Part shown: one piece after another, positions 7,374 through 42,174 of the stretch
Layout: each line of letters begins with the position of its first letter
Numbering within the stretch: the stretch's first letter is position 1
Assembly (NCBI GenBank): GCA_045531855.1
Contig: JAZSEU010000030.1
Span: 1,412 to 65,411, forward strand
Direction of reading: 5' to 3'
From: Acutalibacteraceae bacterium
GTDB taxonomy: Bacteria > Bacillota > Clostridia > Oscillospirales > Acutalibacteraceae
Length of the DNA: 64,000 bases
The notes under the pieces: generated by a model
What the model was told of the DNA's origin: nothing
Database searches by the model: none
What the model saw: only the letters and a program-made list of their open reading frames with translations
Program-made: the position numbers and the translations under genes

Positions 7374-8492
7374 TTATATAGTGTTTAGAATTTTAATAGC
7401 TCGTTCTTCTTCGCGGGGATATAAATGCGCATAAACCTTAAGCGTTATGTTTGCGTTTGAATGGCCTAGTCTTCGAGCTATCTCCTGAATATTAATTCCC
7501 TCGTTTATAAGCAGGGTGGCGTGGGTATGCCTAAAATCATGTATTCTTATAGTTCTAAGTCCTGCTTTTTGGGAAAGTTCAATATTCTTATTGGAAAGGC
7601 TTGTATCACGAAGGGGAATTTCACCGCCGCAAACAAGCATATTTTCATTCCATTTTGAGTATTCCGTTTGTTGAATTTTCTTTTGTTCTTCAAGGATACT
7701 TTGTAAAGGCTTTGGAATTTGCAGTTTTCGTTGGCTGGAAGCGTTTTTAGGCGGAGTGAATATATTTTGCTTCCCTTTTACTTTTTGAGCAACAGAGCGG
7801 GTCACGGACAATATATCGCCCTTTATATCGCACCATCTTAGAGCGTTTATTTCCCCTTTACGCATACCTGTATAAAAAGCAATAGAAAAGAAAGTGTAAT
7901 AAGCCCAGTCTTTCGGGGATTTCAAATCTAAAAAAGAAATAAACTTTTTGTATTCTTCGGCCGTATAATACTGAATTTTTTCTTCGGGCTTATTAAAATC
8001 ATATGCATCTTTAAAATTAGGAATCCTTTGAAGAGGATTATTTGGTAGATATTCCATTCTAACCGCAAAATTCAGCATTGCTGTAAATTCTTTATAGATA
8101 TTCTTTTTAGATGTTGTCTTTAAGGTTAATTTTGCGATTTCATTTTTCCAGTTCTGAAGGATAGGAATAGTGAGTTTTGATAGCCTTACATTTGCAAGCG
8201 TTGGTAGCACATATCTTTCGAGGTTACTTTTTGTTTTTGCAAGACTGGTTTCTCTAACTTCGTTTTGTTTTGTTTCGATATACAATTCATAAAGGCCGGA
8301 TATGGTTAAAATTTTAGAAGGTTCAATATTGGTTTGGGCCTGCAATTTTGCTTCTGCTTGTTTTGCCTCGGTTGAGCCGTATACTAATTTTGATTTTTGC
8401 TTATAATTTCCGTTAGTGTCGGTGAAATTATAAGTTACCCTATATTGAGATTTTCCTTCTTTATTCTTTTTTCCTGTTTTATATATAGGCAT
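7374..8492 (-). CDS. int: Tyrosine site-specific integrase
   Basis: 372 aa. C-terminal catalytic region HDFRHTHATLLINEGINIQEIARRLGHSNANITLKVYAHLY (R..HxxR..Y pattern). Adjacent to attL. Confidence 0.92.
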   Translation of the reverse strand: MPIYKTGKKNKEGKSQYRVTYNFTDTNGNYKQKSKLVYGSTEAKQAEAKLQAQTNIEPSKILTISGLYELYIETKQNEVRETSLAKTKSNLERYVLPTLANVRLSKLTIPILQNWKNEIAKLTLKTTSKKNIYKEFTAMLNFAVRMEYLPNNPLQRIPNFKDAYDFNKPEEKIQYYTAEEYKKFISFLDLKSPKDWAYYTFFSIAFYTGMRKGEINALRWCDIKGDILSVTRSVAQKVKGKQNIFTPPKNASSQRKLQIPKPLQSILEEQKKIQQTEYSKWNENMLVCGGEIPLRDTSLSNKNIELSQKAGLRTIRIHDFRHTHATLLINEGINIQEIARRLGHSNANITLKVYAHLYPREEERAIKILNTI

Positions 8493-8510
8493 TATAATAT
8501 CACCTCTTTA

Positions 8511-8906
8511 TTACTGTAGATAATAGTCTAAGGCTTTTTGCATAAAATCCTCGGTAACGCCGAAATGTTCGGAGAGCTCCCAGCGGTTTCGGCAATATTT
8601 ACAGGCTTCTTTTAGCTCATCCTCGGGGATGAGTTTTTTTATTGCCCATTTATTTGCTGTGTTTTCGTGTTTGGAACGAATATCAAATGGTGAATACTGA
8701 TTATAGAACGCTCCGGTTTCACAATGCCCGAGTTCATGAGCGAGTTTGACTTTTTCGTCTGATTCGTTAATTAACTTCAAAGGGTTTATAGCTATATGGC
8801 ATTGCCCATCGAGTAATAGTGAAACGCTTTCGGTTTTTTCCAAATCAAAAGAAAAAACATTAACATTATCATATTCGGCAATATCATATAGGTTGCTTAA
8901 TGTCAT
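8511..8906 (-). CDS. ImmA/IrrE family zinc metallopeptidase (candidate repressor-cleaving antirepressor)
   Basis: 131 aa with HELGH motif. It overlaps the stop of the upstream XRE repressor gene, which is the classic ImmR/ImmA arrangement. Confidence 0.8.
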   Translation of the reverse strand: MTLSNLYDIAEYDNVNVFSFDLEKTESVSLLLDGQCHIAINPLKLINESDEKVKLAHELGHCETGAFYNQYSPFDIRSKHENTANKWAIKKLIPEDELKEACKYCRNRWELSEHFGVTEDFMQKALDYYLQ

Positions 8907-9472
8907 AGGGTATCCTCTTTCTTTTTTTCTCTAATAAACTGTGCGAATTTACGAACATCTTCAAGAATATCAGGAGTGATATCCTTATTGTCTTCTCCGT
9001 AGAGCGCAAACATTAAAGCCTCGTCGTTAGTGATAACGGTGGGGTTTTCTTTATTTATAATCTGATTTATTGCATTTTTAGTTTCCGGTTTGGTTCGATA
9101 TTCCATTATCATTTTCATTTCGCGGTTTGTTGCAATAAAGGGTTCGGAATCTTTTGAAGGTAAATTGGAATCTTCCTTAAATATTAATACGGAGTTTTTA
9201 TTAGCGGAGTTGAGAACCAGGGGATTGGAATTGTCAGTTGTATTTTGCAAGGGGAAATTCATTTCATACTGTTCGTCTTCACCCATTATAAAAGATGGAT
9301 GCACTTGAAGAGCGTTAGCCAAAGAAACAATTTTATCACGGCGCATATTCGCAATGTCTCCACTTTCCCATCTTGAAACGGTAGCTTCGCTGACACCGAT
9401 TTGTTTCGCAACCTCGAGCATAGTCAATCCTAATTCTTTTCGTCTTTTCTTTAATTTTTCACATATATTCAT
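8903..9472 (-). CDS. XRE-family HTH repressor (CI-like)
   Basis: HTH LGLTMLEVAKQIGVSEATVSRWESG. Start moved to ATG 9472 (MNICEKLKK), which follows a GGAGG. Divergent from the cro-like gene. Confidence 0.85.
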   Translation of the reverse strand: MNICEKLKKRRKELGLTMLEVAKQIGVSEATVSRWESGDIANMRRDKIVSLANALQVHPSFIMGEDEQYEMNFPLQNTTDNSNPLVLNSANKNSVLIFKEDSNLPSKDSEPFIATNREMKMIMEYRTKPETKNAINQIINKENPTVITNDEALMFALYGEDNKDITPDILEDVRKFAQFIREKKKEDTL

Positions 9473-9499
9473 TCTACGCACCTCCAATATTACGATAGA

Positions 9500-9528
9500 A
9501 TTATAACACATTACTTGCAAAAAAGCAA
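9500..9528 (-). promoter_or_regulatory. Candidate sigma-A promoter for the repressor operon
   Basis: On the minus strand: TTGCTT, 17 nt, TGtTATAAT (extended -10). Palindromic operator 9513-9530 overlaps it. Confidence 0.4.
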
Positions 9529-9530
9529 GT
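9513..9530. promoter_or_regulatory. Palindromic operator-like site
   Basis: ACTTGC-aaaaaa-GCAAGT perfect inverted repeat. Confidence 0.55.
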
Positions 9531-9568
9531 GCGAAACGCTTTTTTTTGAAAAAACTTGCGAAAAGGTA

Positions 9569-9597
9569 TTGACAAAGAGGAAAAGGTGTGTTATCAT
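9569..9597 (+). promoter_or_regulatory. Candidate early rightward promoter (drives cro-like gene and the early operon)
   Basis: TTGACA (9569-9574), 17 nt, TGtTATCAT (-10 at 9592-9597). Confidence 0.6.
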
Positions 9598-9600
9598 TAA

Positions 9601-9616
9601 CTTGCGTAAACGCAAG
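9601..9616. promoter_or_regulatory. Palindromic operator-like site at the early promoter start region
   Basis: CTTGCG-taaa-CGCAAG perfect inverted repeat, 4 nt after the -10. An extra half-site CTTGCG lies at 9555-9560. Confidence 0.55.
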
Positions 9617-9639
9617 AATTATAGAAGGGAGGAAACGTA

Positions 9640-9843
9640 ATGTTTAATCAAAACATGTTAAAGGCGAAGATTATTGAAAATGGAAAATCAGTTATTGACC
9701 TATGTAATGACTTGGGTATTTGTGAAGCTACTTTTTATCGAAAGTTAGCACGAAATGGAGATTTTTCCCGTTTCGAGATTAGAAGGATAACGGAATCTTT
9801 GAATTTGAACAAGGCAGAAAGGGACAAGATTTTTTTTGCTTGA
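9640..9843 (+). CDS. Cro-like small HTH protein
   Basis: 67 aa. Segment IDLCNDLGICEATFYRKLARNG is HTH-like. GGGAGG RBS. Divergent from the repressor. Confidence 0.7.
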   Translation: MFNQNMLKAKIIENGKSVIDLCNDLGICEATFYRKLARNGDFSRFEIRRITESLNLNKAERDKIFFA

Positions 9844-9846
9844 AAA

Positions 9847-9862
9847 CTTACGGAAACGCAAG
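9847..9862. promoter_or_regulatory. Third, imperfect operator-like palindrome
   Basis: CTTACG-gaaa-CGCAAG, one mismatch relative to 9601-9616, directly after the cro-like stop codon. Confidence 0.4.
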
Positions 9863-9978
9863 AAAATTATTTTAGAAGTAATTCTTCATTTTTAAACTTA
9901 GAATTTAAAGTGCAGCTATCGTTTGGACATATTCTATCAAAAACATTGTCCAATAAAAAGGACTAAGGAGGTGAAAAT

Positions 9979-10290
9979 GTGAGGCAGGTGAATATCGCAG
10001 CAGCTCTTGAATTGTATTATGAGAGGTTAACCTTAAGTAACAAGGATATAAAAAATATATTTGGTGTTACGAGTGATAGTACTGCAAGCAAGATAAAGAA
10101 TGAAGTGATTTGTTATTTTGCTGAGTCTGATATAAATCCCATTAGCGCTCTAAACGGTAGGATTAAAACTGAATATGCTTTTGAGGCTTGGGGCATAGAT
10201 ATCAAAAATCTTGAGATGCGCTTTAGAAAATTACAAAAAATAAACGCCGCCCCCGGAAATAGCGTTCCGAAGACGGCAAAAGAAAATTAA
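9979..10290 (+). CDS. Hypothetical early protein
   Basis: 103-aa ORF with GTG start preceded by AAGGAGG. No recognisable motif. Confidence 0.5.
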   Translation: MRQVNIAAALELYYERLTLSNKDIKNIFGVTSDSTASKIKNEVICYFAESDINPISALNGRIKTEYAFEAWGIDIKNLEMRFRKLQKINAAPGNSVPKTAKEN

Positions 10291-10347
10291 CTTATTGGCA
10301 TTATACCAAAAGTATAACAAAAAGTCAAATGATAAGGAGAAAAGAAT

Positions 10348-10959
10348 ATGAGTAATTATTTAATGTTAAACGGAAAAAGGATAGATTTAACAGCTGAACA
10401 GATAGCGGATATAAAGCAAAGCTTTGGTATCGAGGATGTTAAATTATCAGATATAAAGGTTGGGGAAACTTTTAGAATCGGAGAGTATGAATTTGTTGTG
10501 TTAGAACAGTCCGGGGATACTACTGCAGTTATTCTTAAGGACTTATTGCACGAAGAAGAGATATTTGGCAGCAACAATAATTATGATGGGTCAAATGTAG
10601 ACAAGCTTTGCAATGAGTTTGGTGAAGAAATAGAAAATATAGTTGGTTCGGACAACCTTGTTGAGCATACAGTAGACCTTACAGCTGATGATGGGCTTAA
10701 ATGCTATGGAACTATCAAACGAAAGCTTTCCCTTATTACCGCCGAGCAGTATCGCAAATATGTGTACATATTGGATGAGCATAAAATCAGTTCTTGGTGG
10801 TGGCTGGCTACACCGCATAGCACAGATAAACACGAGAATGCAAGTTGGGTTAAAAGCGTTTCGCCTCTCGGCGGCATTAACAACTGCGGTTGCAACTACT
10901 ATGACTTTGGGGTTCGCCCGTTTTGTATCTTAAAATCTAATATCTTTGTATCTAAATAA
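10348..10959 (+). CDS. DGR target protein 1 (variable C-terminus; DUF6273/DUF1566-like WWWL...GVRP module)
   Basis: 203 aa, paralog of 10971-11489. The C-terminal ...SWWWLATPHS...VSPLGGINNCGCNYYDFGVRPF contains VR1. Confidence 0.85.
   Translation: MSNYLMLNGKRIDLTAEQIADIKQSFGIEDVKLSDIKVGETFRIGEYEFVVLEQSGDTTAVILKDLLHEEEIFGSNNNYDGSNVDKLCNEFGEEIENIVGSDNLVEHTVDLTADDGLKCYGTIKRKLSLITAEQYRKYVYILDEHKISSWWWLATPHSTDKHENASWVKSVSPLGGINNCGCNYYDFGVRPFCILKSNIFVSK
10856..10924 (+). repeat. DGR variable repeat VR1
   Basis: Ungapped 69-nt alignment to TR 11903-11971 with 14 differences, all at TR adenines. Confidence 0.9.
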
Positions 10960-10970
10960 GGAGAATAAAA

Positions 10971-11489
10971 ATGAAATTATCAGAAATTAAAATAGGAAAT
11001 ACTTTTAAAATTGCAGGCATTGAATTTGTAAAGCTCACAGAGGAGAACGGTGTATGTGCGGCTATATCCAAGGATATACTTTTCAATTCTAAATTTGGTA
11101 AGAATAATAACTTCGCTGAAAGCGAAATTTTAGAAAGACTTAATAATGAGGTTTTACCAAAATTAGAAGCTGAGGTAGGCCCTGAAAACATAAAGGAGTT
11201 TGAAATTGATTTAACTTCGTTAGATGGCTTAGACACATACGGCAAAATTAAATCAAAAATAGGATTGCCGACTATTGATTTCTACCGTGAAAATGTAAGA
11301 ACTTTTGATAAGTATAAACCTAATAACTGGTGGTGGTTAGCAACACCTGATACCACAAAGGAACACTTGAATGATAATTGGACAGTTTGCGTTTCGCCTC
11401 TCGGCGGCATTGGCAACCGCCATTGCATCATCAATAGCCTTGGGGTTTGCCCGTTTTTATACTTTGTATCTTTTATTTCTGTATCTTGA
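10971..11489 (+). CDS. DGR target protein 2 (paralog of target 1)
   Basis: 172 aa. ...NWWWLATPDT...VSPLGGIGNRHCIINSLGVCPF contains VR2. Confidence 0.85.
   Translation: MKLSEIKIGNTFKIAGIEFVKLTEENGVCAAISKDILFNSKFGKNNNFAESEILERLNNEVLPKLEAEVGPENIKEFEIDLTSLDGLDTYGKIKSKIGLPTIDFYRENVRTFDKYKPNNWWWLATPDTTKEHLNDNWTVCVSPLGGIGNRHCIINSLGVCPFLYFVSFISVS
11389..11457 (+). repeat. DGR variable repeat VR2
   Basis: Ungapped 69-nt alignment to the TR with 15 differences at TR adenines plus one C-to-T difference (11448). Confidence 0.9.
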
Positions 11490-11501
11490 GAGGAATAAGC
11501 T

Positions 11502-11870
11502 ATGGCCGATAATGATTTAAAAGTGATAATAAAAGCCAAAGAATTAGCGGTGCATTCTTTCAAGTTGACTTCCAATTGCAATAGATATCCTAAAAAATAT
11601 AGGCATTCGCTTGTTGACCAAATACAGCTGATAAGCTTGAAAATTCACAATAATTTATTGGAAGCGAATAGAACTAATAATGTTAGTCATTTGCGAGAAC
11701 GATGCGAAAAGATAACCAGGGCTATTACTTGTTGTGATGAGTTGCTCTTTTATATTGAATTATCTATCGAGCTTGGACTATTAGCGGATAATTCTGCAGC
11801 TTATTGGTCGAAGTTGGTATCGGATGTTAAGTATATGTCTATTGCGTGGAGAACAAAAGAAAAAAGATAA
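11502..11870 (+). CDS. avd: Avd-like accessory variability determinant (four-helix-bundle / 23S rRNA-IVS protein family)
   Basis: 122 aa. Pattern KAKELAVHSFKLT...YPKKYRHSLVDQIQLISLKIHNNLLEANR is typical of the family. It lies between the targets and the TR. Confidence 0.8.
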   Translation: MADNDLKVIIKAKELAVHSFKLTSNCNRYPKKYRHSLVDQIQLISLKIHNNLLEANRTNNVSHLRERCEKITRAITCCDELLFYIELSIELGLLADNSAAYWSKLVSDVKYMSIAWRTKEKR

Positions 11871-11902
11871 ATTTATTTAGGCTGTATGTTGTATTTTTCT
11901 AT

Positions 11903-11971
11903 GCGTTTCGCCTCACGGCAACATTAACAACAACAATTACAACAACAATAACAATGGGGTTCGCCCGTATT
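11903..11971 (+). repeat. DGR template repeat (TR)
   Basis: Noncoding. Contains 24 adenines. In the target reading frame it reads as AAC/AAT-rich codons (SPHGNINNNNYNNNNNGVRP). Confidence 0.9.
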
Positions 11972-12072
11972 GGTGGACAGCCGGTCAGAGTAGGTTCTAT
12001 ACCGAAATCAGAGCACCGCCATCAAAAGAATGTACAGCCTTTCCGTAAGGATAAACAAAGAGAGTGTGTTGT

Positions 12073-13110
12073 ATGACCGAGTTTGAGAAAGTAATCGATT
12101 TTAATAATATGTATAAAGCCTATCGAAAGGCCAAGCGTGGTAAAGGCTATAAAAAGAGTTCTGCCCAGTTTGGAATAATGGCATTAGATGGAATAAACAG
12201 GCTCATAGAACAATTAAATAACAAGACCTATAAAATATCTGATTATCAGGAGTTTAAGGTTTATGAGCCTAAGGAACGGATTATTAAAACTACCGCTTTT
12301 AAGGATAAGGTCGTGCAACACAGCTTGTGTGATAATGTGATATTACCAAGACTTAAAGAAATCTTTATATACGATAACTGCGCCGGCCAAAAAGGAAAAG
12401 GCACTCTGTTTGGTCTTAACCGCCTAAGTGAACAAATGGCAGAGTTTTATGAGAGGTATGGGACTGACGGATATATTCTTAAATGCGATATATCTAAATT
12501 CTTCTACAGCATACCTCATCAACAATTAAAAGATATCGTTAACTATTATTTTTCAGATGATAAGGATATATGTTGGCTCTGCGATTTGTTTATTGATAGC
12601 ACCGAAGGGAAAGGAATACCGTTAGGGAATCAGATTAACCAGGGCTTTGCTCTTCTTTACTTAGATGGTTTAGACAAGCTTATTAAAGGTGAATTAGGTA
12701 TTCAATATTACGGGAGATATATGGATGATTTCTATTTAATCCATCCTAGCAGGGAATATCTCAAATATTGCCTTGAAGTAATAACAGAGTTTTTAAGTAC
12801 TTTGGAGCTTTCTTTAAATGGGAAAACACAAATATTCCCTATAAAAAACGGAGTTAGTTATCTTGGATTTCATACTTATATTACTTCCGATGGGAAGATA
12901 ATACGAAAACTAAAAAATCAAAATAAAAGAAACGCTCAGCGAAAATATACAAGAATGGCAAAATTAGTAGCTTCTGATAAATTAACGAGAGATAAGTTTC
13001 AAAGCTCATATAATTCTTGGAAAAATCATATATCGCACGGTAACTGTTATAAGTTGAGTAAGGTTTCAGATAAGAAAATAAATAACATATTAAAGGAGAA
13101 AAGAATATGA
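12073..13110 (+). CDS. DGR-type reverse transcriptase
   Basis: RT motifs include YMDDFYL and LGNQINQ (DGR-type [I/L]GxxxSQ-like motif). ATG 12073 (MTEFEKV) is preferred over GTG 12064. Confidence 0.9.
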   Translation: MTEFEKVIDFNNMYKAYRKAKRGKGYKKSSAQFGIMALDGINRLIEQLNNKTYKISDYQEFKVYEPKERIIKTTAFKDKVVQHSLCDNVILPRLKEIFIYDNCAGQKGKGTLFGLNRLSEQMAEFYERYGTDGYILKCDISKFFYSIPHQQLKDIVNYYFSDDKDICWLCDLFIDSTEGKGIPLGNQINQGFALLYLDGLDKLIKGELGIQYYGRYMDDFYLIHPSREYLKYCLEVITEFLSTLELSLNGKTQIFPIKNGVSYLGFHTYITSDGKIIRKLKNQNKRNAQRKYTRMAKLVASDKLTRDKFQSSYNSWKNHISHGNCYKLSKVSDKKINNILKEKRI

Positions 13111-13358
13111 ACGGTTGTATTTACATAGATGGAATTGTAATGTGGGTGGTTGTATCAATATTAGTTTTATTGGTTGCGATTGCTCTTTTTTGTTCGATAT
13201 GCAGCATCGGGCTTCAGGATGAAAATTACATATTAAGGGACAAGCTCAGGAAGTCCGAGGAAGAGAACAAGGATTTGCGGTGTGAGCTTAGTAAAACATT
13301 ACAAAAGCTATACTCCAAGCAATATACGGACAACCTCAAGAGTTTAGAGGTGGAATAA
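13107..13358 (+). CDS. Small membrane-anchored coiled-coil protein
   Basis: 83 aa. Hydrophobic segment VMWVVVSILVLLVAIALFCSICSI. ATGA overlap with the RT stop codon. Confidence 0.55.
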   Translation: MNGCIYIDGIVMWVVVSILVLLVAIALFCSICSIGLQDENYILRDKLRKSEEENKDLRCELSKTLQKLYSKQYTDNLKSLEVE

Positions 13359-13549
13359 TGGCTGAGTGCTTAATCACAAAAAAAGCCTTACCTGAAAGAA
13401 ATGTTCATTTTATAGGGTTCGAATGCAGAAACAAGGATAGATATTGTTGTCCTAATTATAGATATAGTTTTTTAGATGGGACAAACTGTCAGTTGCTCAG
13501 AAAACCTCGTAATGTTGAAACACTTTTAAGGAGGGCGGAAAATGTATAG
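13358..13549 (+). CDS. Hypothetical small Cys-rich protein
   Basis: 63 aa, 1-nt overlap with the upstream stop. Confidence 0.45.
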   Translation: MAECLITKKALPERNVHFIGFECRNKDRYCCPNYRYSFLDGTNCQLLRKPRNVETLLRRAENV

Positions 13550-13910
13550 ATGCAATAACTGCTCTGCTGATTTTGAGGAGCCTGATGTTATCAGAGAGGA
13601 TACAAGCGAAAAATGGTTCGTATGTCCTTATTGCAGAGGAACGGACTTCGGTGAACTAAGACCAAGAAAAGAAGATGATGCCTTTTTGAAGATTAAAAAG
13701 AGCGAGGTTATAGATTTTGCGGTTGCTGCTATTGCTTTTATAAATGCAGGTGAAACAGACACTGCAAAAGAAACCCTTATTGAGCTCGTTGGAGAGATGG
13801 TGGGGTGCCATTTTGAATACAAGCAAAGCCTTGCACTTGTATCGGATAAAAAGGCAGTAGAGGAGCTCAGAGACAATATTATCACAATGTTAGAGGTGGA
13901 AGTTGTATGA
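13542..13910 (+). CDS. Hypothetical protein with N-terminal zinc-ribbon-like CxxC...CxxC
   Basis: 122 aa with CNNC...CPYC. Overlaps the upstream ORF. Confidence 0.55.
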   Translation: MYRCNNCSADFEEPDVIREDTSEKWFVCPYCRGTDFGELRPRKEDDAFLKIKKSEVIDFAVAAIAFINAGETDTAKETLIELVGEMVGCHFEYKQSLALVSDKKAVEELRDNIITMLEVEVV

Positions 13911-14003
13911 GATACGATGAGAATTTAACCTCTGCAGAAATTAGGCTTATAGAAAAGCTTAAGGATAAGAACCGAATGGAGCAAGACCAAATCATAGGAG
14001 AGT

Positions 14004-14240
14004 ATGAAAATGGCTAATTTCGAATCAGGAGTAGCTTCTTATGTTAAGACCTATGCCGTTGTTGAGGTTTATTTCCCGGTAGACGATAAAGGCAGAGCAG
14101 ATATTTCCTGTAAACGCTGTCCTTATCTCACTACAACGGGGATACAGGCTAAATGCCAGTTGAATAAAAGGGTTATAGCATTCCCGGATAGATTTGTCGG
14201 GGATTATTGTCCGCTTAATAAAATTGAAAGTGAGGAATAA
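14004..14240 (+). CDS. Hypothetical small Cys-rich protein
   Basis: 78 aa. A possible additional 36-codon ORF (13907-14017) fills the gap upstream. Confidence 0.45.
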   Translation: MKMANFESGVASYVKTYAVVEVYFPVDDKGRADISCKRCPYLTTTGIQAKCQLNKRVIAFPDRFVGDYCPLNKIESEE

Positions 14241-14241
14241 T

Positions 14242-14751
14242 ATGCAGTTTAGAGATTTAACAGCTGAGGATATTGAATGCCGAGTTGCACAATGCAATCA
14301 AATTTGGGGTGTTCAACTTTTGCTTTATAAAAACGCAAGAGTAGATATGAATATTCTTGATGAGACTGTAGGTAACGAAAATTGGCAAAATAGATTTTAT
14401 GAATGCAAAGGGAACCTATATTGTTCACTTGGAATAAATGTTAATTACGATAAACCCGAAAAAGAGCCTTTGTGGATTTGGAAGGATGATTGCGGTAGCG
14501 AGAGTAATACCGAAGCTGAAAAAGGAGAAGCCAGTGATGCTCGAAAGCGTGCTGGAGTTGCCTGGGGAATTGGCAGAGAACTTTATACTGCACCAAAATT
14601 CATTTGTTTCAAGCCTGAAGATGTTACTTGGAAAGATGGAAAATGTAAGGATACTTTTACAGTTATATCCTTAACGGTTGAAAACAAAAAAATTGTGGGT
14701 TTCCAAATTCAAAACAACAAGACAAAAAAGGGAATTAAATATGGCAAGTGA
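14242..14751 (+). CDS. Rad52/Sak-like single-strand annealing protein
   Basis: Start MQFRDLTAEDIECRV at ATG 14242 with an RBS. Motif KGEASDARKRAGVAWGIGRELY resembles the conserved Rad52-family K-x-A-x-S/T-D-A-x-K-R segment. Confidence 0.65.
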   Translation: MQFRDLTAEDIECRVAQCNQIWGVQLLLYKNARVDMNILDETVGNENWQNRFYECKGNLYCSLGINVNYDKPEKEPLWIWKDDCGSESNTEAEKGEASDARKRAGVAWGIGRELYTAPKFICFKPEDVTWKDGKCKDTFTVISLTVENKKIVGFQIQNNKTKKGIKYGK

Positions 14752-28797: not shown

Positions 28798-29819
28798 TGG
28801 CAACTAAACCAAGAGATTGGAATGTCATACATTCTGAAATTGAAAATTCACTTGCTGCTCAAAAGCAGGCGGATAAGGATGCACAAAATAAAATATTTGA
28901 TACAAATAAAAAGACCATAACCGATAATTATACGCAGTCAATAAAAGATGGTGAGGCTGAGTATGAGGACGATTATAGAGAAAACGCTGTTCAGAAAAAG
29001 GTTAACGAGTTTTACATATCCGAAGAGATGGCTAATATGGGGCTTGCTAATTCGGGGTTCAATCGCACACAAATTACGGCAAATCAGTTATCCTATGCCA
29101 ATAATAAGGCGGAAATCGACAGGAAGAGACAGAGTATGGTTGATAGTCTCAAAATAGAAATGACTAATAAGCTTACCGAAAACGAAAACGAAAGAACAGG
29201 TGCTTTAGCAGGTATTGATTCGAGTTACAAGCAAACTGCAATCGAAAAAACAAATGAGATTTATGGAGATGAGTGGGATGCTTATAATAAAGAACGAGAA
29301 GCGGAAATTAAAGCTGAAACGGAGAGGCAGAAGGCGTATTACAGTGCCTTGGAAAAACAAGCAGAAGCAGCAAAAAACGCCAAGCCCCAAAATATTATAA
29401 ACAGCAAGGAAGGGTTTTTAAATCGTGAGGCTATGAAGGAGGGCGGCTTTACTGCAAACAACATCAAAGTTAAAGAAAACGGAAATGGAACAGTAACTTA
29501 TTTTGATATAGATACAGGGTATTCTTCTACATTTGCGAAAAATGAAAATCCGTTTACTGGACGTGCGCATAAAAACGCCCAATATGGAACATTCGATAAC
29601 GGGTATCAGCCAAACAACATGGGTAAAGATGAAAGCGGAAAAATATTAAAGTTAAGAGCTGCAAAGAGAGTTGATACAGGCGAAACTGCAACACTTCCTA
29701 AAAATGGACAGCAACAAACAGTATGGACCGTTGATGGCAAAACATTCTATCTTTGGAATGGAGCTATCAACGATTATGAAAAATTAAACCCCAACAAAGC
29801 AAAAGGAGTGTTCAAGTAG
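28797..29819 (+). CDS. Virion-associated coiled-coil protein
   Basis: 340 aa. The central region is charged and helical. Confidence 0.45.
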   Translation: MATKPRDWNVIHSEIENSLAAQKQADKDAQNKIFDTNKKTITDNYTQSIKDGEAEYEDDYRENAVQKKVNEFYISEEMANMGLANSGFNRTQITANQLSYANNKAEIDRKRQSMVDSLKIEMTNKLTENENERTGALAGIDSSYKQTAIEKTNEIYGDEWDAYNKEREAEIKAETERQKAYYSALEKQAEAAKNAKPQNIINSKEGFLNREAMKEGGFTANNIKVKENGNGTVTYFDIDTGYSSTFAKNENPFTGRAHKNAQYGTFDNGYQPNNMGKDESGKILKLRAAKRVDTGETATLPKNGQQQTVWTVDGKTFYLWNGAINDYEKLNPNKAKGVFK

Positions 29820-32800
29820 TGAATGTAATCGACTTCGATATTAAAAAAATAGGAAGCAAAAGCGGAGAGAATACACAAAAAACGGTGGATTTCGATATAT
29901 CACAAGTGGGAGGTAAAGGGGATGTTGACCCGATTACAGTACTAAAAAACCTTGCTTCTCCTTCTTCCTCCTCTCAATCCCCCCTTCGCAAGTATAGTTC
30001 GATAGATTGGGAAAACAATCCCTTAAATAAAATCGACAAAGCCAAATCAACTATTCCTTCGGTGTATTACGATGAGAGTTATGTTGAAACGAAAAAGAAT
30101 AACGCTGAAATTGCAAAATTGAAGGCTGATATGGAAGCGGCAAAATATAATTTCCAACACGCCAAAAACGATTATGGTTTGGTGCAGCAAGGAATGGAAT
30201 ATTTGAGAAATTTCGATGTTGTTGATACATATTCGGGTGAAAAATATTCAGCATATAAAACATGGCAAGAAGCGGCCGAAAAATACTATACCACAAAATA
30301 CGGAAACAAAGAAGCTCAACAAATTTTGTTAAATCAATTACAGGCCACAAAAAAAGAAGTTCCTGAAAATAAAAAAGAAACGGTAGACACTACCATAAAA
30401 GAATTACAAAACTCTTTATATGGAGATTATGTTATTGATGATTTTGTAAGTAATAGCATAATGGCAGGTGTGTCTGGATATGATGCAGGATTTTCTAAAT
30501 CTCTGGATGCAACATTAGGTAAGGCTTTAAATTGGTTGGGATGGAAAAATAATCCTATAAATAAACTAAATAGTTGGATATCATCGGGTAATGAATATTA
30601 TGCGGAGAATGCCGCAAATGCAGCGGCTGCGATGGGTGGAGGTATTTATAATTACGTAAACGCCTTTAATCAAGGAATTATAGGTATGTTGCCAGATATT
30701 GTAATTGCGATGGCATCGGGTAAAGGTTTAGCCAATACTCCAACAGCTCTTAAAAAGATAGCTAATATTGCAACAAATCAAGCCTCGATGGGAGCTATTG
30801 CGAAATTTGGAGATAATATGACAAGGGCGGTTTCCAACACTTTTTCAACCGCAGTTAAAAATCCTTTATATTGGACTTCTATGACAAGAACTTTTGGTAA
30901 CGATTATGAGGAGGCTAAAAAGGGTGGGGCTTCAGAAGGAGCAGCTTATTTATATGCTACACTTACTTCTTCAATGAATGCCTTAGTAGAAATCGGCGGT
31001 GGTGTGCAAGTTCTTCCTGATAAACTTAAAAATTTAACTAAACCGCAAATATTAGAATTAATTATAAGTGCCGTTGAAGAAGGTAATGAAGAGGTAATCC
31101 AAAGTTTAATTAGCGATATTAACGCAAAACTTATATATGACCCCAATAAAGAAATGACTTCCGCAAAAGATTTAGCTTTTGAATGGGCCGTTGGTTTTGG
31201 TGTTGGTGTTGCCGGAGGCTCAGGAACTGTAATTTTAGATAATATAGTTAATAATCGTTCCGAATATGCTAAGGTAGGTGAAATTGTTAGAAAAGATAGC
31301 AACAATGTTGAAGGCGTTATAGAATATGCTTCAAAATCTTCCAATGAAAGCATTAGAGATATAGCGACCAAAAATATAAGTAATCCTTCGAAAATTTCCA
31401 ATACGGATTTAGGTGTTTTGTATTCTTATGTAATGCAAGATATTGATACAGCGTTTAATTCTGCAACAACCATTGAAAATCTTTCAGAAGCGTTAACTAG
31501 TTTGAATACTTCAAATGAAACTGTTAAAAATTTAGCGTTTTCAAGATATGTTAAAAGAGCTATGGAATTAGGCGAAGATATAAAAAATATCGAAGCAAGT
31601 AAGAATGAATTTATAGTTCCCTCAAATACCGCTCATGCTTCTTTAACTGAAGCCGAGCAGGAAATATTAAACACCCCCGATGAGCAGTTGACACCTGTGC
31701 AGAGAGCAATTAAACAAAATATTCAAGAAAGACATTCTTCAGTGTTGCGCACGGGTGCAAATAATAATGGCACAAATGTGAAACTTGAAACTATGAAACA
31801 ACAAAAAAACACCGCCCAGGATAGCGATGCAAATACTGAAAATATTGTTGACCTTTCAGGAGATAATAATTTGTCAAAACTGGTTGAAAATTTGCATGGT
31901 GCAGAAAAATACAAAAAAATCAGAGATTATATATTTGGCATTTTGGGTGGCCGCAACATAAAACTTAGTGATGGCAAAAATGCTATTGTTGATAAAAGCG
32001 ATGCTTTGCATATAGCAAATAAATCAGGTTCCGAAAAAACTTCACAAATATCGAAGATTAAAGAGTTAATAGAAAAAGCTAGGCTTTATGCGGAAGATAA
32101 TAATGTTCAACATAATAAATTCAACTATTTTTGTTATTATATTGTTGATATAAAATACGGAAAAGAGATTATCCCTATTTATATTAATGTTGGCAAAGGT
32201 AAAAACGATGGTAAATATCATATTTATGATATTACTAAAAAAATAAGAGATACCGCCCATCGAGTTAACGATGTGGAGCGCCCCAAACCAAACGAGGGCT
32301 ACGCTCTAGAAAACGATATCTCTAACAATAGATTAACACAAAAACCACCTATTGTCAATAATATTATATCCAACGAAGGCGATAATAATTCCTCCACCCC
32401 CTCCGATATTATCCTTCCGGAAAATATAAAGGAGATATCGATAGCAAATAAAAACAAACAGCGACATCATACAACCCTGAAAGAGCAAAACTATATTATA
32501 GGCATAGGTAAGGCTTTGGGCAGAACGGTTGTTTTTGAAAATGTTGTTGATAAACTTAGAGCCGAAGGAATAGACCTTAAAGGGCAAATACCTGATGGAT
32601 ATATAGATAACAATAATGTTATTCATATGAATTTTACGGTTATAGACCCATTGACTTTTATTTTCAAGCATGAGCTCACTCATTTCGGAGAAGGTACCGA
32701 AGCATATAACAAGTTTGTTGATGCGGTTAGAAAATCAGATGCTTTTAAAAACTGGCTTATAGAGAAAACGGGTCTTAATGCTGAAGATAATACCGTAGAA

Positions 32801-35800
32801 GTTCTTATTGCTGCAGCAAGACAAAGCGTTATGGATAGCCGTACTGGTGATGCGGCTGTTGATGTGGACGCGGCAATGGCCGAGGTTATAGCCGATTTTG
32901 TTGGAGATTGTTTATTTACTGATAACGGCTCAGGCCTGGAGTCAATGCTCAGCAACCTTAATGTTAAGGAACGAAACGCTGTTATTCAATATATACTCGA
33001 CTTTTTATCTTACATAAAGAAAAAACTCGCAGGATATAAAGATATAGAGTTTGAAATCTCCCGACTTGAAGATAGCTTTAATCGAATGCTATCAGAAGCA
33101 ACTCAGGTAAAGGCTGCGGGCGACTTTACGAGCGAAGGAAATAAGTATACATTTGCTCGGTCTTATGATACCGAAGCTATATCCAAAGCTGAGGATATGG
33201 AGAGTCAAGGTGCAAAACATCCTGAGATTTGGGAAGAAACAGGGCTGATGCGTGATGGAGGAGGAACTTGGGTTTATGAAATAGATGATTCCGAGATGGA
33301 GTTTTATCCTGAAGGCAATGCGAAAAAAGAGCTTGATGCGGATTATTACGAATATCTTTCATTAGCAAAACTGAAAAGGCGAACTCCTGAAAAAAGCAAA
33401 AGATTTATGGAGTTATATTCTAAATACGGCAACATTTTTTTGAAAAAATATACGGTTGCAGATTTTGTTAAGCACGATAAGTTGTTTAAAGCATATCCGC
33501 AACTAAAAGATATAAAAATAGAGTTTAGAGATTTGGGCGAAAATGGTTATGGCGGCTATTATTCTCATTCGGAGAAAAAAATAGTTATCAATCAGCATTC
33601 GTTAAATTCTAAAGACCCGAATAGAATAAAAAAGACTTTGATTCACGAGATGCAGCACGCGGTTCAATATATTGATGGTCGTGAAGAAGGTTCTAATAAG
33701 GAATTTTGGAATGCACGTATTTTGAACGGCGAAAGAATGCCTATAAATTATAGAACCGGAAGACCATATACGTCCGAAGAAACATATGATGCCTATTTGG
33801 ATACTGCAGGGGAAATGGAAGCCAGAGAGGCCGCAGAAAGATTCGATTATACTGAAGATGAGCGAGGATATAGCTTTTTTGCTCCCGATATAGATTATAA
33901 TAATTCTGTAAGGATGAGCGAGTTTAAAAAGGAAACGGTTCCTACCGCTATGTCAGAAGGATATATTGAAGCTGTAAATTCAAAGGATGTAAATACTGCT
34001 CAGCGTTTAGTTGACCAAGCCGCTAAGAAATCGGGTTATACCGAGAGACTTTATCATCAAACGGGAAAAGAATTTACGGAATTTAATACCAACAACCAAA
34101 TTGCCGGTAAATATGATTGGGAGTTGCCTACAGGGACTTTTTTAAAGCCGTCTAATAACGATATTGGTTTATCCGGCAAAAAGCAACTGGAGCTTTATGC
34201 AAAGTTTGAAAATGCATTGGTATTCAAGAATAGAAGTGAAGCTCGAAAGTTTTGGGTTGATAATATTCCCGAATATAAGAAGATAGCTCAAGAACTCACA
34301 AACATAGATTCTCAATACCGCAGAAAAACCGATGAGGCTATGGATAATGTTCGCCAGTATTTGAAACAATGGAAACAAAAAAATCCCACTACTGACAGTA
34401 GAGAGATTTATAGTGATTCCGAATATCAAAGGCTCAATGATTTAGAGGATAAAATCGTTGATGAATGGGAAGAAAAGAGCAATGAGGCAAGCTTAAGGGC
34501 TAAGGAGTTGCTTGATGATTTCATTTCGAACAGTGATTTTGATGGTGTTGTTGTAGAGAATGATGAAGGCTCATATGGTAGGAGTACAAAGACATATATT
34601 GTTTTTGATTCGAGTCAACTAAAGGATGCTTCGCCTATTACCTATGACGATAATGGTAATGTTATACCTTTGTCAGCAAGATTTGATTCTGACAAGAAGG
34701 ATATTAGATATTCGATACCTCGTGGGACAACGCATACTGGCGAGGATTTAAAAGATACTCCCGATACATTGAAACCAAAATCGAATAGAGAATGGTCTGC
34801 TTTTAATCGCTCATTCGCAAATCAAACAAATGGATTGAAAAGTGGAGCGAAAAAGAGTATAATAATTACAACTCAAAGCAATGTATATTTTGTTTTTGCG
34901 GATGGATACATGAGCGGCGAAATTGTAAAAAAAATAAATATTGATAAATTAAAGAAAGGTCAAGAGTTTTATGACAGTTTGGGACGGGCAGAAACTAATC
35001 ATAGCAAAGATGAAATCATTGGGAATAGACAAGGAAACTATAGTGGTAGCTATGTTTTTGGAAACCAAGAAACAGATACTAACTATGATGAATTGGATGA
35101 ATTCATTGACAAACATCCCGAGTGGTTCCGAAATAAAAGAGAAAGTTATGCAAATTATAAAAGAAGAGAAATAGATAAAAATAAATATTCTATACCAAGC
35201 GAAGCTAATAGTTTGCTCGATAGATATGAAAACGGAGAAATCAGTCGAGAGGATTATCAGCAACAATTGGATGAGCTTTGGAAGTCGGCTAATGAGGAAT
35301 ATGGAACTATAAAGCAAGGCGAAAATGCTAAAACGCCATTAGCTATTCCTAAAGCGGTTGAAGATGGTATGCCTACTAAGCAATTCATAAGAACTGTTAT
35401 AGAAACAGGTAAGCTTACTTCTGAGATGATAGAAGATATTGAGCAAGAAGTTTTATTAGGTGATACATATTTTTATAAAGTTGTTTCCGATGAAAGTGCC
35501 AAGAACAAGGCAGAAAAAAGTTTTGAAAAGGGAATAGCTGAAGAAAGCTGGAATAAGGCAATATCTACAAAGGCGATTTCAAAAGAGGATATTGCTATCG
35601 GTGAAAAACTTTTATTGCAGGCGATAGAAGATAATAACAGGTTGGGGGTTATCGAATTATCTGCCGAACTTGCCGATGCATTCACTCGTTCAGGACAAGT
35701 TGTCCAGGCGGCGAGAATGCTCAAAAAAATGTCAGGTGTGGGAAGGCTGGTTGCAGCACAAAAAAATGTAAACACGATAAACAAATCTTTACAAGAAAAG

Positions 35801-37690
35801 TATGGAGATAAGTCGCCAACGGTGAAGCTTAATCCGTTACTTGCGGAGCAGTTAGCAAAAACAAAAACCACCCGAGAAATTGAAATGGTTTACGGTGAGG
35901 TATTAAGTGATATTGCTTCTCAAGTCCCTGCGACTTGGCTTGATAAATTAAATGCTTGGCGGTATTTCGCTATGTTATCCAATCCGAGAACCCATATAAG
36001 AAACCTTGTTAGCAATACGGTGTTTACACCGAGCATTATGTTGAAAAGATTTATCGCTACAGGTGCGGAACATATACTTATTAAAGATGCTGATAAAAGA
36101 ACAAAAGCGGTTTTCATCAAAAAAGAGTATATGGATTTTGCTAAAAAGGATATTAAAAATCGTGAAGTTAAGAATATGCTTCAAGGAAAAGGACAACTGG
36201 ATGATAAAGCCATCATAGAAGAGCTAAGGAAAACTTTTGAAACCAAATGGCTTGAATCACTTACAAAGGGCAATGGCAATCTTTTGGAAGCTGAAGATAT
36301 GTGGTTTAAATCACATCATTATAAAGTTGCCTTTGCAAGTTTTTTACAGGCCCGAAAAGTAAATTTGAAAAGTGTTAGCGAAACCACTTTACAGGAAGCT
36401 AGAGAATATGCAGTTAATGAAGCGAAGAAATCTACTTTCCAAGATTTCAGTAAACTTGCGAATTGGCTCAACAATATAAAAAATCCTGTTGGTAGAATTG
36501 CTGTCGAGGGTGTGCTACCCTTTAAGAGAACCCCGATTAACATTATTAAGCGTGGGGTTGAATATAGTCCTATAGGACTTATGGAAAAACTCACTGTGGG
36601 ATTATTGGATGTTCGGAAAGGAAAGATTACTGTTTCGGAATTTTGCGATGGTTTAGCTGCAGGTATTGCAGGTACGGGCTTGATGGCTATTGGTTGGGTT
36701 TCGGCATCTGCAGGTATGGTTGTTGGCAGTTCCGGAGATGATGAAGAAGATAAGTTTAAGCGACTTAACGGCGAACAAGAGTATGCTGTTCAAATTTTTG
36801 ATAAATCATATACTGTTGACTGGGCTGCACCGGCTGCGATACCCTTTTTCATAGGGGTGGAGCTTGCGGGCGAAATTGATGAGAATGATGGTTTTGAATT
36901 TAAAGATTTAACAGATAGCTTTTGGAATGCCTTGGAGCCTATTACAAATCTTTCTATGCTTTCCGGAGTGCAGGGACTGATAGAGGCTGTAAAATATGAG
37001 GATAGCAGTAAGACAATAGGAACGATGATAGGCGATGTTGCTACTAATTTTGCGATGCAATTGATTCCTTCTTCATTTGGTGCAATCGCAAGAACGATTG
37101 ATGAAACCCAACGAACTTGGTATACTGACAAGAACTCATCCTTAGACTCATTCTCACAATCGATAATAAATAATGTAAAATCTAAGGTTCCTGGTTTGTC
37201 ATATACACAAATACCAAAAATCGATGCATGGGGTAGAGAAGCAAGTCGAGGCTCGGTTGGAGAAAGGATAGCGGAAAACTTTATTTCTCCCGGATACTAT
37301 TCGCAAATTGATGTTTCGGATGCTGAAGAAGAACTTAAGAAAATTTATAGGAGCACTGGAGAAAATGTTTTTCCAAAAACAGCTGCAAAATATTTCCAAG
37401 TCAACGGTGAAACCAAGCATTTAACTGCAGATGAATATGTTGAATATGCAAAGGCGAAAGGTGAGTACTCTTTTGATTATATCGAGGAGTTTGTTAACAG
37501 TAGTACTTTCACTAAACTCACCGACAATGAGAAAGCGGAGGTTATTAAAAACCTTTATGAATATGCCAATGCAAAAGCAAAGGCTAAAGTTTCTGATTAT
37601 GATATTATGAAGCAGTATAAAACTGTAACTAATTGGGAACGAGACGGAAAATCGGCAGTTATTTACTACATATCCAAAGCTATAAACTAA
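29819..37690 (+). CDS. Giant (2623-aa) multidomain virion/ejection protein, polyvalent-protein-like, with two zincin HExxH motifs and hydrophobic Gly-rich segments
   Basis: Uninterrupted 7.9-kb ORF. GTG start overlaps the previous TAG. HELTH at 32669-32683 and HEMQH at 33644-33658. Predicted membrane-like segments near both ends. Confidence 0.85.
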   Translation: MNVIDFDIKKIGSKSGENTQKTVDFDISQVGGKGDVDPITVLKNLASPSSSSQSPLRKYSSIDWENNPLNKIDKAKSTIPSVYYDESYVETKKNNAEIAKLKADMEAAKYNFQHAKNDYGLVQQGMEYLRNFDVVDTYSGEKYSAYKTWQEAAEKYYTTKYGNKEAQQILLNQLQATKKEVPENKKETVDTTIKELQNSLYGDYVIDDFVSNSIMAGVSGYDAGFSKSLDATLGKALNWLGWKNNPINKLNSWISSGNEYYAENAANAAAAMGGGIYNYVNAFNQGIIGMLPDIVIAMASGKGLANTPTALKKIANIATNQASMGAIAKFGDNMTRAVSNTFSTAVKNPLYWTSMTRTFGNDYEEAKKGGASEGAAYLYATLTSSMNALVEIGGGVQVLPDKLKNLTKPQILELIISAVEEGNEEVIQSLISDINAKLIYDPNKEMTSAKDLAFEWAVGFGVGVAGGSGTVILDNIVNNRSEYAKVGEIVRKDSNNVEGVIEYASKSSNESIRDIATKNISNPSKISNTDLGVLYSYVMQDIDTAFNSATTIENLSEALTSLNTSNETVKNLAFSRYVKRAMELGEDIKNIEASKNEFIVPSNTAHASLTEAEQEILNTPDEQLTPVQRAIKQNIQERHSSVLRTGANNNGTNVKLETMKQQKNTAQDSDANTENIVDLSGDNNLSKLVENLHGAEKYKKIRDYIFGILGGRNIKLSDGKNAIVDKSDALHIANKSGSEKTSQISKIKELIEKARLYAEDNNVQHNKFNYFCYYIVDIKYGKEIIPIYINVGKGKNDGKYHIYDITKKIRDTAHRVNDVERPKPNEGYALENDISNNRLTQKPPIVNNIISNEGDNNSSTPSDIILPENIKEISIANKNKQRHHTTLKEQNYIIGIGKALGRTVVFENVVDKLRAEGIDLKGQIPDGYIDNNNVIHMNFTVIDPLTFIFKHELTHFGEGTEAYNKFVDAVRKSDAFKNWLIEKTGLNAEDNTVEVLIAAARQSVMDSRTGDAAVDVDAAMAEVIADFVGDCLFTDNGSGLESMLSNLNVKERNAVIQYILDFLSYIKKKLAGYKDIEFEISRLEDSFNRMLSEATQVKAAGDFTSEGNKYTFARSYDTEAISKAEDMESQGAKHPEIWEETGLMRDGGGTWVYEIDDSEMEFYPEGNAKKELDADYYEYLSLAKLKRRTPEKSKRFMELYSKYGNIFLKKYTVADFVKHDKLFKAYPQLKDIKIEFRDLGENGYGGYYSHSEKKIVINQHSLNSKDPNRIKKTLIHEMQHAVQYIDGREEGSNKEFWNARILNGERMPINYRTGRPYTSEETYDAYLDTAGEMEAREAAERFDYTEDERGYSFFAPDIDYNNSVRMSEFKKETVPTAMSEGYIEAVNSKDVNTAQRLVDQAAKKSGYTERLYHQTGKEFTEFNTNNQIAGKYDWELPTGTFLKPSNNDIGLSGKKQLELYAKFENALVFKNRSEARKFWVDNIPEYKKIAQELTNIDSQYRRKTDEAMDNVRQYLKQWKQKNPTTDSREIYSDSEYQRLNDLEDKIVDEWEEKSNEASLRAKELLDDFISNSDFDGVVVENDEGSYGRSTKTYIVFDSSQLKDASPITYDDNGNVIPLSARFDSDKKDIRYSIPRGTTHTGEDLKDTPDTLKPKSNREWSAFNRSFANQTNGLKSGAKKSIIITTQSNVYFVFADGYMSGEIVKKINIDKLKKGQEFYDSLGRAETNHSKDEIIGNRQGNYSGSYVFGNQETDTNYDELDEFIDKHPEWFRNKRESYANYKRREIDKNKYSIPSEANSLLDRYENGEISREDYQQQLDELWKSANEEYGTIKQGENAKTPLAIPKAVEDGMPTKQFIRTVIETGKLTSEMIEDIEQEVLLGDTYFYKVVSDESAKNKAEKSFEKGIAEESWNKAISTKAISKEDIAIGEKLLLQAIEDNNRLGVIELSAELADAFTRSGQVVQAARMLKKMSGVGRLVAAQKNVNTINKSLQEKYGDKSPTVKLNPLLAEQLAKTKTTREIEMVYGEVLSDIASQVPATWLDKLNAWRYFAMLSNPRTHIRNLVSNTVFTPSIMLKRFIATGAEHILIKDADKRTKAVFIKKEYMDFAKKDIKNREVKNMLQGKGQLDDKAIIEELRKTFETKWLESLTKGNGNLLEAEDMWFKSHHYKVAFASFLQARKVNLKSVSETTLQEAREYAVNEAKKSTFQDFSKLANWLNNIKNPVGRIAVEGVLPFKRTPINIIKRGVEYSPIGLMEKLTVGLLDVRKGKITVSEFCDGLAAGIAGTGLMAIGWVSASAGMVVGSSGDDEEDKFKRLNGEQEYAVQIFDKSYTVDWAAPAAIPFFIGVELAGEIDENDGFEFKDLTDSFWNALEPITNLSMLSGVQGLIEAVKYEDSSKTIGTMIGDVATNFAMQLIPSSFGAIARTIDETQRTWYTDKNSSLDSFSQSIINNVKSKVPGLSYTQIPKIDAWGREASRGSVGERIAENFISPGYYSQIDVSDAEEELKKIYRSTGENVFPKTAAKYFQVNGETKHLTADEYVEYAKAKGEYSFDYIEEFVNSSTFTKLTDNEKAEVIKNLYEYANAKAKAKVSDYDIMKQYKTVTNWERDGKSAVIYYISKAIN

Positions 37691-39348: not shown

Positions 39349-39360
39349 GGAGGGAGAATA

Positions 39361-41961: not shown

Positions 41962-42162
41962 ATGAAAGAAAAAGTTATAAAATGGTTAAAGGCCGCAGGT
42001 ATAAGAGCAATTAAAACGGTTGCCGAAACTGCAGTAGCAACTATCGGTACTTCCGCAGTGCTTGCTCAGGTAGACTGGAAGATAGTTGTATCAGCTTCAA
42101 TTCTTTCAGGAATACTTTCCCTATTGATTTCAATTAAAGGCTTGCCTGAGATAAAAGAATAA
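41962..42162 (+). CDS. Holin candidate
   Basis: 66 aa with two hydrophobic segments, adjacent to the endolysin gene. Confidence 0.6.
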   Translation: MKEKVIKWLKAAGIRAIKTVAETAVATIGTSAVLAQVDWKIVVSASILSGILSLLISIKGLPEIKE

Positions 42163-42174
42163 GATATAAGAAAA

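Follow-up and report, generated by a model that had tools for sequence, protein, structure and literature searches.

A stretch of 64,000 nucleotides (nt) from an Acutalibacteraceae bacterium (contig JAZSEU010000030.1, positions 1,412 to 65,411 of the forward strand; hereafter the window) very probably carries a complete diversity-generating retroelement (DGR) of the avd-TR-RT type, active now or until recently, carried by a temperate phage that has inserted itself into a gut bacterium of the Oscillospirales (Acutalibacteraceae-like). The DGR is genuine, typical of gut Clostridia prophages and a member of a large catalogued class. Two target genes, each with a variable repeat (VR), the accessory gene avd, the template repeat (TR) and the reverse transcriptase (RT) gene follow one another on one strand in the order target1-target2-avd-TR-RT, with all parts within 2.8 kb and 202 nt separating the avd gene from that of the RT. 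The coordinates refer to the window:

10348-10959, + strand: target gene 1, 203 amino acids (aa), DUF6273 / C-type-lectin-like, with VR1 near its C-terminus
10856-10921, + strand: VR1, variable repeat of target 1, encoding VSPLGGINNCGCNYYDFGVRP, gapless against the TR
10971-11489, + strand: target gene 2, 172 aa, a paralogue of target 1, with VR2 near its C-terminus
11389-11454, + strand: VR2, variable repeat of target 2, encoding VSPLGGIGNRHCIINSLGVCP, gapless against the TR
11502-11870, + strand: Avd-like accessory gene, 122 aa, upstream of the TR
11903-11968, + strand: TR, non-coding, 66 nt with 23 adenines
12073-13110, + strand: RT gene, 345 aa when counted from the ATG at 12073; motifs YMDD and PLGNQINQ

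The distribution of the differences between the repeats supports this reading. In the target frame the TR reads VSPHGNINNNNYNNNNNGVRP, all 23 of its adenines occupy codon position 1 or 2, and the sole open reading frame (ORF) across it is a mechanical GTG ORF in a different frame. The 13 differences between VR1 and the 66-nt TR all fall on TR adenines (hypergeometric P = 5.6e-8), as do 14 of the 15 in VR2 (P = 1.3e-7), the remaining one being a C>T change. A first-pass annotation, made from the sequence alone, had described a gapless match of 69 nt between the TR and the 3' ends of two upstream ORFs, and a script reproduced this match as well as the counts in that longer frame (TR 11903-11971, 24 adenines; VR1 10856-10924, 14 differences, all on TR adenines; VR2 11389-11457, 16 differences, of which 15 lie on TR adenines and one is C11962>T11448); the target frame and the three peptides are also those that it gave. 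Its figure of 24 adenines is correct over 69 nt, but the effective number is 23, with A11969 best read as the fixed end of the TR/VR homology and not as a mutagenized site, because in related loci the three bases that follow the common CCGT differ consistently between the TR (ATT, ACT, TCT or TCC) and the VRs (almost always TTT). TR and VRs share the GC-rich end GGGGTTCGCCCGT, and their divergence immediately after it is consistent throughout the family. With one adenine fewer, the 4^24 DNA variants per VR first proposed become 4^23 = 7e13, corresponding to ~3.7e13 peptides, and no stop codon is reachable by mutating the variable codons. The RT gene starts 104 nt downstream of the TR, and no third or remote VR was found on either strand of the whole window, tail-fiber genes included.

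Past the ends of the two VRs (10922-10959 and 11455-11489) we observed a motif, (T)TTGTATCT, which occurs twice after VR1 and once after VR2 together with one copy of the one-base variant TTCTGTATCT, and which overlaps conserved C-terminal codons (FCIL...IFVS and FVS...SVS). The repeated TTTGTATCT found after both VRs was considered as a possible cis element and set aside because the conserved FCIL/IFVS strands of the C-terminus are encoded there.

Scans with the RT protein retrieved 160 related loci from genomes, mostly gut Oscillospirales and Lachnospiraceae metagenome-assembled genomes (MAGs), and from IMG/VR, and an adenine-tolerant, ungapped TR/VR finder was run on those with enough upstream DNA. 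Two VRs at nearly constant spacing were found in 100 of the scanned loci, one in 39, three in 3 and none in 10, and the target-target-Avd-TR-RT cassette is common to ~100 of the 160 loci fetched. The first-pass annotation had named differences spread evenly over all four template bases in related prophages as a result that would contradict it; across 203 non-redundant TR/VR pairs the mismatches affect 2292 of 4249 TR adenines (54%) and 45 of 10,095 other bases (0.45%), the latter rate being a lower bound, somewhat underestimated because the finder penalizes non-adenine mismatches.

The closest relative, a prophage in an Acutalibacteraceae MAG (L001), has an RT 99% identical to that of the window and shares 93.5% nucleotide identity with it over 10324-14411. 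Its TR is 100% identical to the 66-nt TR, while its VR1 differs from that of the window at 12 positions, 12/12 of them in TR-adenine columns, and its VR2 likewise at 12 positions, 11/12 of them in such columns, the exception being a C>T private to the window. Because the template has stayed identical while both VRs have changed almost solely at adenine columns, these data argue for activity of the element since the two prophages diverged, and they are the strongest support available for recent activity. They also lend indirect support to the earlier proposals that the DGR is or was recently active and that a single template diversifies two genes.

The relatives reside in Acutalibacteraceae and Oscillospiraceae MAGs. 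A blastn search of the cassette against 50,697 GenBank phage records returned two weak matches only, both to the RT and one of them to the RT of phage nd12, so this DGR family is unrepresented among deposited phages. Metagenome contigs, scanned for exact 40-nt matches to the downstream flank of VR1, gave none. A different cassette architecture occurs inside the same RT family in four loci from Ruthenibacterium, Pseudoflavonifractor and Acutalibacter (L076, L077, L079 and L080), which belong to a more distant RT clade (53% identity) and have a single VR ~760 nt downstream of the RT, a TR of 101 nt and a spacer of ~190 nt.

The profile searches proposed in the first-pass annotation, and a search of the PDB, assign the RT, by its best structural match and its profile scores, to the DGR clade. 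Its best match in the PDB is the Bordetella phage DGR RT (bRT; 8ub7_A, E 5.6e-31, residues 5-321), ahead of a group II intron maturase (6.8e-10) and retron-type RTs (5.6e-6), and it matches phrog_1423 with 364 bits (E 3.8e-108) and RVT_1 with E 8.8e-15. Its scores remain far below the curated cut-offs of TIGR04416 for group II introns (76.9 vs 300), Drt3a (55.3 vs 200) and retron St85 (34.1 vs 235). The ORF at 11502-11870, annotated as Avd-like, matches phrog_3206, 'Avd protein of DGR', with E 6.3e-19, and lies just above the cut-offs of both PF05635 (34.0 bits vs 33.8) and TIGR02436 (25.2 vs 24). A single-sequence AF2 model of this protein consists of four long helices, for which Foldseek gave no significant match to bAvd.

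The RNA around the TR contains further conserved elements, whose architecture we compared with that of the Bordetella RT-Avd-RNA structure, predicted in the same study for Bacillota DGRs too (bioRxiv 10.1101/2023.10.23.563531):

11880-11890, + strand: GGCTGTATGTT, in the gap that follows avd, forming the 5' strand of a long-range duplex that encloses the TR
11972-12020, + strand: structured RNA domain directly 3' of the TR, with a candidate template:primer helix and candidate Avd-binding stem-loop
12021-12028, + strand: conserved single-stranded linker AUCAAAAG between the two spacer helix strands
12029-12039, + strand: AATGTACAGCC, 3' (spacer) strand of the long-range duplex
12042-12059, + strand: short stem-loop UCC-GUAA-GGA followed by the A-rich UAAACAAA, the same element order as in the Bordetella cPRT Stop

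The two strands of the long-range duplex form 11/11 pairs in the window. Among 88 non-redundant relatives they form a mean of 10.70/11 pairs, with many compensatory changes (for example GGTTGCGCGTT:AACGCGCAACC, GGCCATACGTT:AACGTATGACC and GGATATCTGAT:ATCAGATATCC), vs 9.18 +/- 0.08 when partners are permuted (maximum of 200 permutations, 9.42). In the 'cPRT Stop' duplex of Bordetella, the strand that lies upstream would be the counterpart of 11880-11890. Immediately 3' of the TR, a second helix joins GGTGG (11972-11976) to CCGCC (12016-12020) and encloses an irregular conserved stem-loop (AGAGUAGG-loop-CCGAAAUCAG) whose tip, an inner 3-bp hairpin, shows compensatory changes. For this helix the first register tried gave a weak signal, and the refined register gave a mean duplex energy across 81 relatives of -6.1 kcal/mol with true partners vs -4.38 +/- 0.17 with permuted ones. 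In the linker, ATCAAAAG is found in 50/74 distinct relatives, with the C and the AAA invariant in alignment A2, and an adenosine of AUCAAAAG is our candidate for the priming nucleotide, after Sp A56 of the Bordetella phage DGR. In the same alignment GGATAAAC is conserved, the neighboring hairpin varies in sequence and length with its pairing kept, and the A-rich tail UAAACAAA may supply A-minor adenosines, as in Bordetella. The single-strand minimum free energy of TR plus spacer is no better than that of shuffled sequences (z = 0.37), so the RNA structure rests on covariation and not on thermodynamic stability. RNAalifold on a MAFFT alignment of the spacer recovered the 3-bp hairpin only, because the 3' strands were misaligned, and was replaced by the anchored partner-permutation tests reported here.

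No Rfam family reached its gathering score with the RNA of the cassette, and neither intron RNA nor retron msr/msd was found. The Rfam model RT-2 (RF03077) aligned below threshold over the spacer (11976-12117, 23.3 bits vs a gathering score of 40): its conserved AGUAG...CGAAAUCAG core and its second hairpin followed by UAAA both align, while its large 3' stem is absent. The resemblance is a lead and no membership, and in 11 relatives Rfam returned tRNAs only at gathering score, with no RT-2.

Taken together, these elements suggest how the DGR would work. The transcript from ~11880 to the RT start would fold so that the duplex 11880-11890:12029-12039 brackets the TR, and cDNA synthesis would be stopped by this duplex together with the short stem-loop and the A-rich tail. 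As the putative template:primer duplex, the helix 11972-11976:12016-12020 would set the 3' end of the TR beside a priming nucleotide in or near AUCAAAAG, from where the RT-Avd complex would copy the TR from ~11968 back toward 11903, misincorporating opposite adenines. The cDNA would then replace VR1 or VR2 by homology, anchored at the common GC-rich end GGGGTTCGCCCGT, and each event would re-randomize as many as 13 codons in the surface beta-hairpin of a small DUF6273 protein, giving access to ~4e13 peptides per target.

This organization follows in many respects that of the DGR in Bordetella phage BPP-1 (mtd-avd-TR-brt), which shares with it the order target-avd-TR-RT, adenine-specific TR-to-VR differences, an AAY-rich TR and a VR near the C-terminus of a protein of C-type-lectin fold, and whose RT is the best PDB relative of ours. 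The likeness extends to the RNA, with a long-range duplex that brackets the TR, then a short stem-loop and adenosines, and a helix at the TR's 3' end. In BPP-1, however, a single trimeric tail-fiber tip protein of 381 aa is diversified, whereas the window has two tandem small targets that lack the beta-prism and beta-sandwich attachment domains, and the BPP-1 cassette stands at the end of the tail operon, unlike the one described here, which lies in the early/replication region. Moreover, the upstream duplex strand is inside avd in BPP-1 and intergenic in the window, the spacer strands are 2 nt apart there and separated by 8 conserved nt here, a hairpin follows the VR there and none was found here, and the RT motif ends in SQ there and in NQ here.

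Each target is a small protein with a single domain and lacks a signal peptide, a hydrophobic segment and any recognizable virion-attachment domain. Target 1 scores 26.4 bits with PF19789 (cut-off 23.5) and E 7.7e-38 with phrog_9958, and has 2420 homologues at E<=1e-5; target 2 scores 23.6 bits against the same cut-off and E 4.6e-34 with the same PHROG, and is 45% identical to target 1 (BLASTP E = 2e-46), lacking the first 30 residues of the latter. In the AF2 model of target 1 (pLDDT 90), VR1 forms a beta-hairpin with strands at residues 177-181 and 187-189, and Foldseek matched the model with DUF6273 phage proteins and with the part of the T. ramosa IgA peptidase that contains DUF6273, namely its N-terminal domain, the matches to C-type lectins being weak (E >= 0.04). 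The likeliest role of both proteins is to bind a ligand or receptor, either extracellularly or on the virion, in line with literature proposals for other phage DUF6273 targets.

A single TR with two VRs, the avd-TR-RT order and DUF6273 targets are all previously known. In a curated set, two-target DGRs make up ~13% and avd-TR-RT is the commonest architecture (PMC5758913), and the viral DGR clades of gut Firmicutes phages have been catalogued, with targets that are mostly predicted tail proteins (PMC8144416). DUF6273 has been described as a C-lec-like DGR target in the gut phages nd4 and nd12 (tentaclins and tgt2, the latter small and single-domain; PMC10743442), in the two-VR DGRs of Faecalibacterium phages Lelie and CP11 (PMC11792537) and in the two-VR DGR of Toutatisvirus (bioRxiv 10.1101/2024.10.15.618418). 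In all of these, as in the window, one TR serves two VRs, each VR lies at the C-terminal end of DUF6273 and the variable region is a surface beta-hairpin. The top match in a phage search with target 1 was an unannotated faecal Bacteriophage sp. contig (MT839962.1, 36.6%), and the closest homologue from a named phage is tgt2 of nd12 (32% identity over 91% of the query). Unlike the window, with its two small adjacent paralogues, these phages pair one large (Ig-like/tail-fiber-like) with one small target; nd12 carries its RT-adjacent cassette in the late region, just upstream of the lysin, with the small target resembling target 1 ~12 kb downstream near the genome end, while in the window the whole cassette lies in the early region, and in Toutatisvirus one target lies ~17 kb from the TR.

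The one trait that stands out, as mildly unusual, is where the cassette sits: in the window and in the family its neighbors are early, recombination and replication genes. The lysogeny genes (tyrosine integrase, ImmA-like protease and cI-like repressor) are on the minus strand, and the genes then run from a cro-like gene through the DGR to Erf, NinB, SSB, DnaD, a methylase and HNH, with a late region made up of terminase, capsid, portal, a 2623-aa ORF, tail fibers (38161-40665) and endolysin, a gene content in line with the prophage origin claimed in the first-pass annotation. A near-consensus promoter-like site precedes the cro-like gene (9569-9597), and no + strand terminator-like site was found between it and the RT gene, the lone + strand match being a weak 5-bp stem inside the RT ORF (12641-12653). 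The cassette probably belongs to the early operon and, because it lies downstream of the cro-like gene and upstream of the recombination/replication genes, is probably expressed on induction or infection. In the relatives, SSB lies <=6 kb from the cassette in 67/151 loci, and the 25 commonest PHROG families among 127 flanking ORFs comprise replication initiators, DnaD, helicase, RecT, SbcC, ParB, methylases, SSB and a number of unannotated families; none of the 25 is a head or tail family. In the closest relative (L001/L162) the DGR and replication module is kept and the lysogeny module differs: its counterpart of the tyrosine integrase, ImmA and cI-like repressor of the window (7374-10323) consists of a serine recombinase, a LexA-type repressor and a PemK-like gene; the breakpoint is just upstream of target 1, at ~10324 of the window. 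Our limited literature search found no discussion of an early-module DGR family.

This placement raises the possibility, which we consider open to doubt, that the DGR is real and its targets have a non-structural role within the infected cell, where they might, for example, bind and neutralize variable host defense proteins or exclude competing phages in an intracellular arms race. The cassette, between the lysis-lysogeny switch and the recombination/replication genes and ~26 kb from the tail-fiber genes, has the same placement family-wide, and the lack of signal peptides, hydrophobic segments and attachment domains in two small proteins would fit such a role. There is one precedent, the Quimbyvirus DGR, which by its description also has two VRs, with one target outside the structural module among methylase and nuclease genes, beside counter-defense genes; this position was taken as a hint of a non-structural role, and in 2021 a single non-structural target was called without precedent (PMC8008677). 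Quimbyvirus differs, however, in being a Bacteroides phage with a frameshifted RT and in having just one of its two targets non-structural. Furthermore, the place of a gene is no proof of what its product does, a virion protein can do without a signal peptide, and PADLOC returned nothing specific for the targets, Avd or the small neighboring ORFs. DUF6273 is fused elsewhere to Ig-like or tail-fiber-like domains (PMC10743442, PMC11792537), and in T. ramosa it is the N-terminal domain of a secreted IgA peptidase; these associations point to extracellular binding. With still more reserve, we put forward that the ~100 loci represent a large clade of Clostridia prophage DGRs whose cassette resides in the early/replication module and whose targets, perhaps non-virion, serve conflict inside the cell or at the level of the lysogen. 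If the targets are indeed not virion proteins, hypermutation would serve such conflict, for example through binding of host defenses or exclusion of rival phages, and not the switching of tail-fiber tropism.

Several observations weigh against an active DGR that works as proposed above. No stable hairpin or cruciform of the Bordetella kind was found downstream of VR1 or VR2, and the roles given to the RNA helices are drawn by analogy with Bordetella alone. The Avd-like protein falls below the cut-offs of both DGR-specific Avd models, PF22296 bAvd and NF033474, and phmmer found no PDB match for it. The RT motif, which the first-pass annotation had read as LGNQINQ, akin to [I/L]GxxxSQ, is PLGNQINQ where bRT has PIGSLTSQ, with N in place of the S of the canonical [I/L/V]GxxxSQ; the YMDD is present as stated and, within the RT clade, NQ is the commonest form at this position (60 sequences, vs 37 with SQ and 30 with AQ). 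The underestimated non-adenine rate of the family belongs here too, as does T11448 of VR2. This base, the only non-adenine difference between the TR and the VRs, lies within the GC-rich element common to them and turns the nearly invariant Arg of GVRPF into Cys (GVCPF). It reads as a private point mutation, because L001 has the ancestral C there, and homing into VR2 might drop as a result of the change in this 3' element. We also observed GVCPF in a homologue, P0101.

The same substitution in a conserved end is what would favor a relic, whose VRs were diversified in the past and whose function has since been lost in this prophage. We find this improbable given that all parts are intact (a full-length RT with YMDD, Avd, a TR identical to that of L001 and fully paired RNA helices), that both target ORFs are open, and that, since this prophage and L001 separated, both VRs have acquired changes at adenine columns, against a divergence of only 6.5% in the flanking DNA. 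We give practically no credence to an RT of another class (retron, group II intron or defense-associated) with a TR/VR resemblance due to ordinary divergence of paralogue ends, since the sub-threshold group II, Drt3a and retron matches are those expected of any RT, and against it stand a DGR RT as best structural relative, the phrog_1423 score, the lack of intron RNA, msr/msd or Rfam matches at gathering score, 27/28 differences on adenines (P < 1e-7 stated for each VR) and ~100 relatives with the same cassette and adenine signature.

DGRs are well characterized and tens of thousands have been catalogued, so one more changes little. The DGR of the window is nevertheless a clean and compact example, with two targets in 2.8 kb and a near-identical relative that has diversified independently. 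Its ~100 relatives provide natural covariation evidence that the Bordetella RNA architecture, with its TR-bracketing duplex, stem-loop and A-rich tail, is also present in Bacillota phage DGRs. The steady early/replication placement and the small targets, devoid of an attachment domain, call into question the default view of phage DGR targets as tail proteins.

Some minor observations concern the rest of the prophage. Upstream of target 1, the minus strand carries a near-consensus promoter-like site from 10328 to 10300 (TTGACT-17-TATAAT with TG) and, ~20 nt past it, a strong terminator-like hairpin from 10278 to 10245 (14 pairs, 8 of them GC) followed by TTTATTTTTT; these could produce an antisense RNA of ~50-60 nt over the 3' end of the ORF at 9979-10290, just upstream of target 1, or the hairpin could be a plain terminator. 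The 2623-aa ORF (29819-37690, + strand) has no PHROG match at E<=1e-4 and lies between a virion structural protein gene and the tail-fiber genes, and no tape-measure or sheath gene was recognized among the ORFs scanned. Just past the endolysin end of the prophage there is a tRNA-Ser (GGA) gene (43037-43128, - strand), and local GC content drops to 0.33 over 42001-44000; the tRNA gene and the GC dip at 43 kb may mark an attachment site or the prophage boundary.

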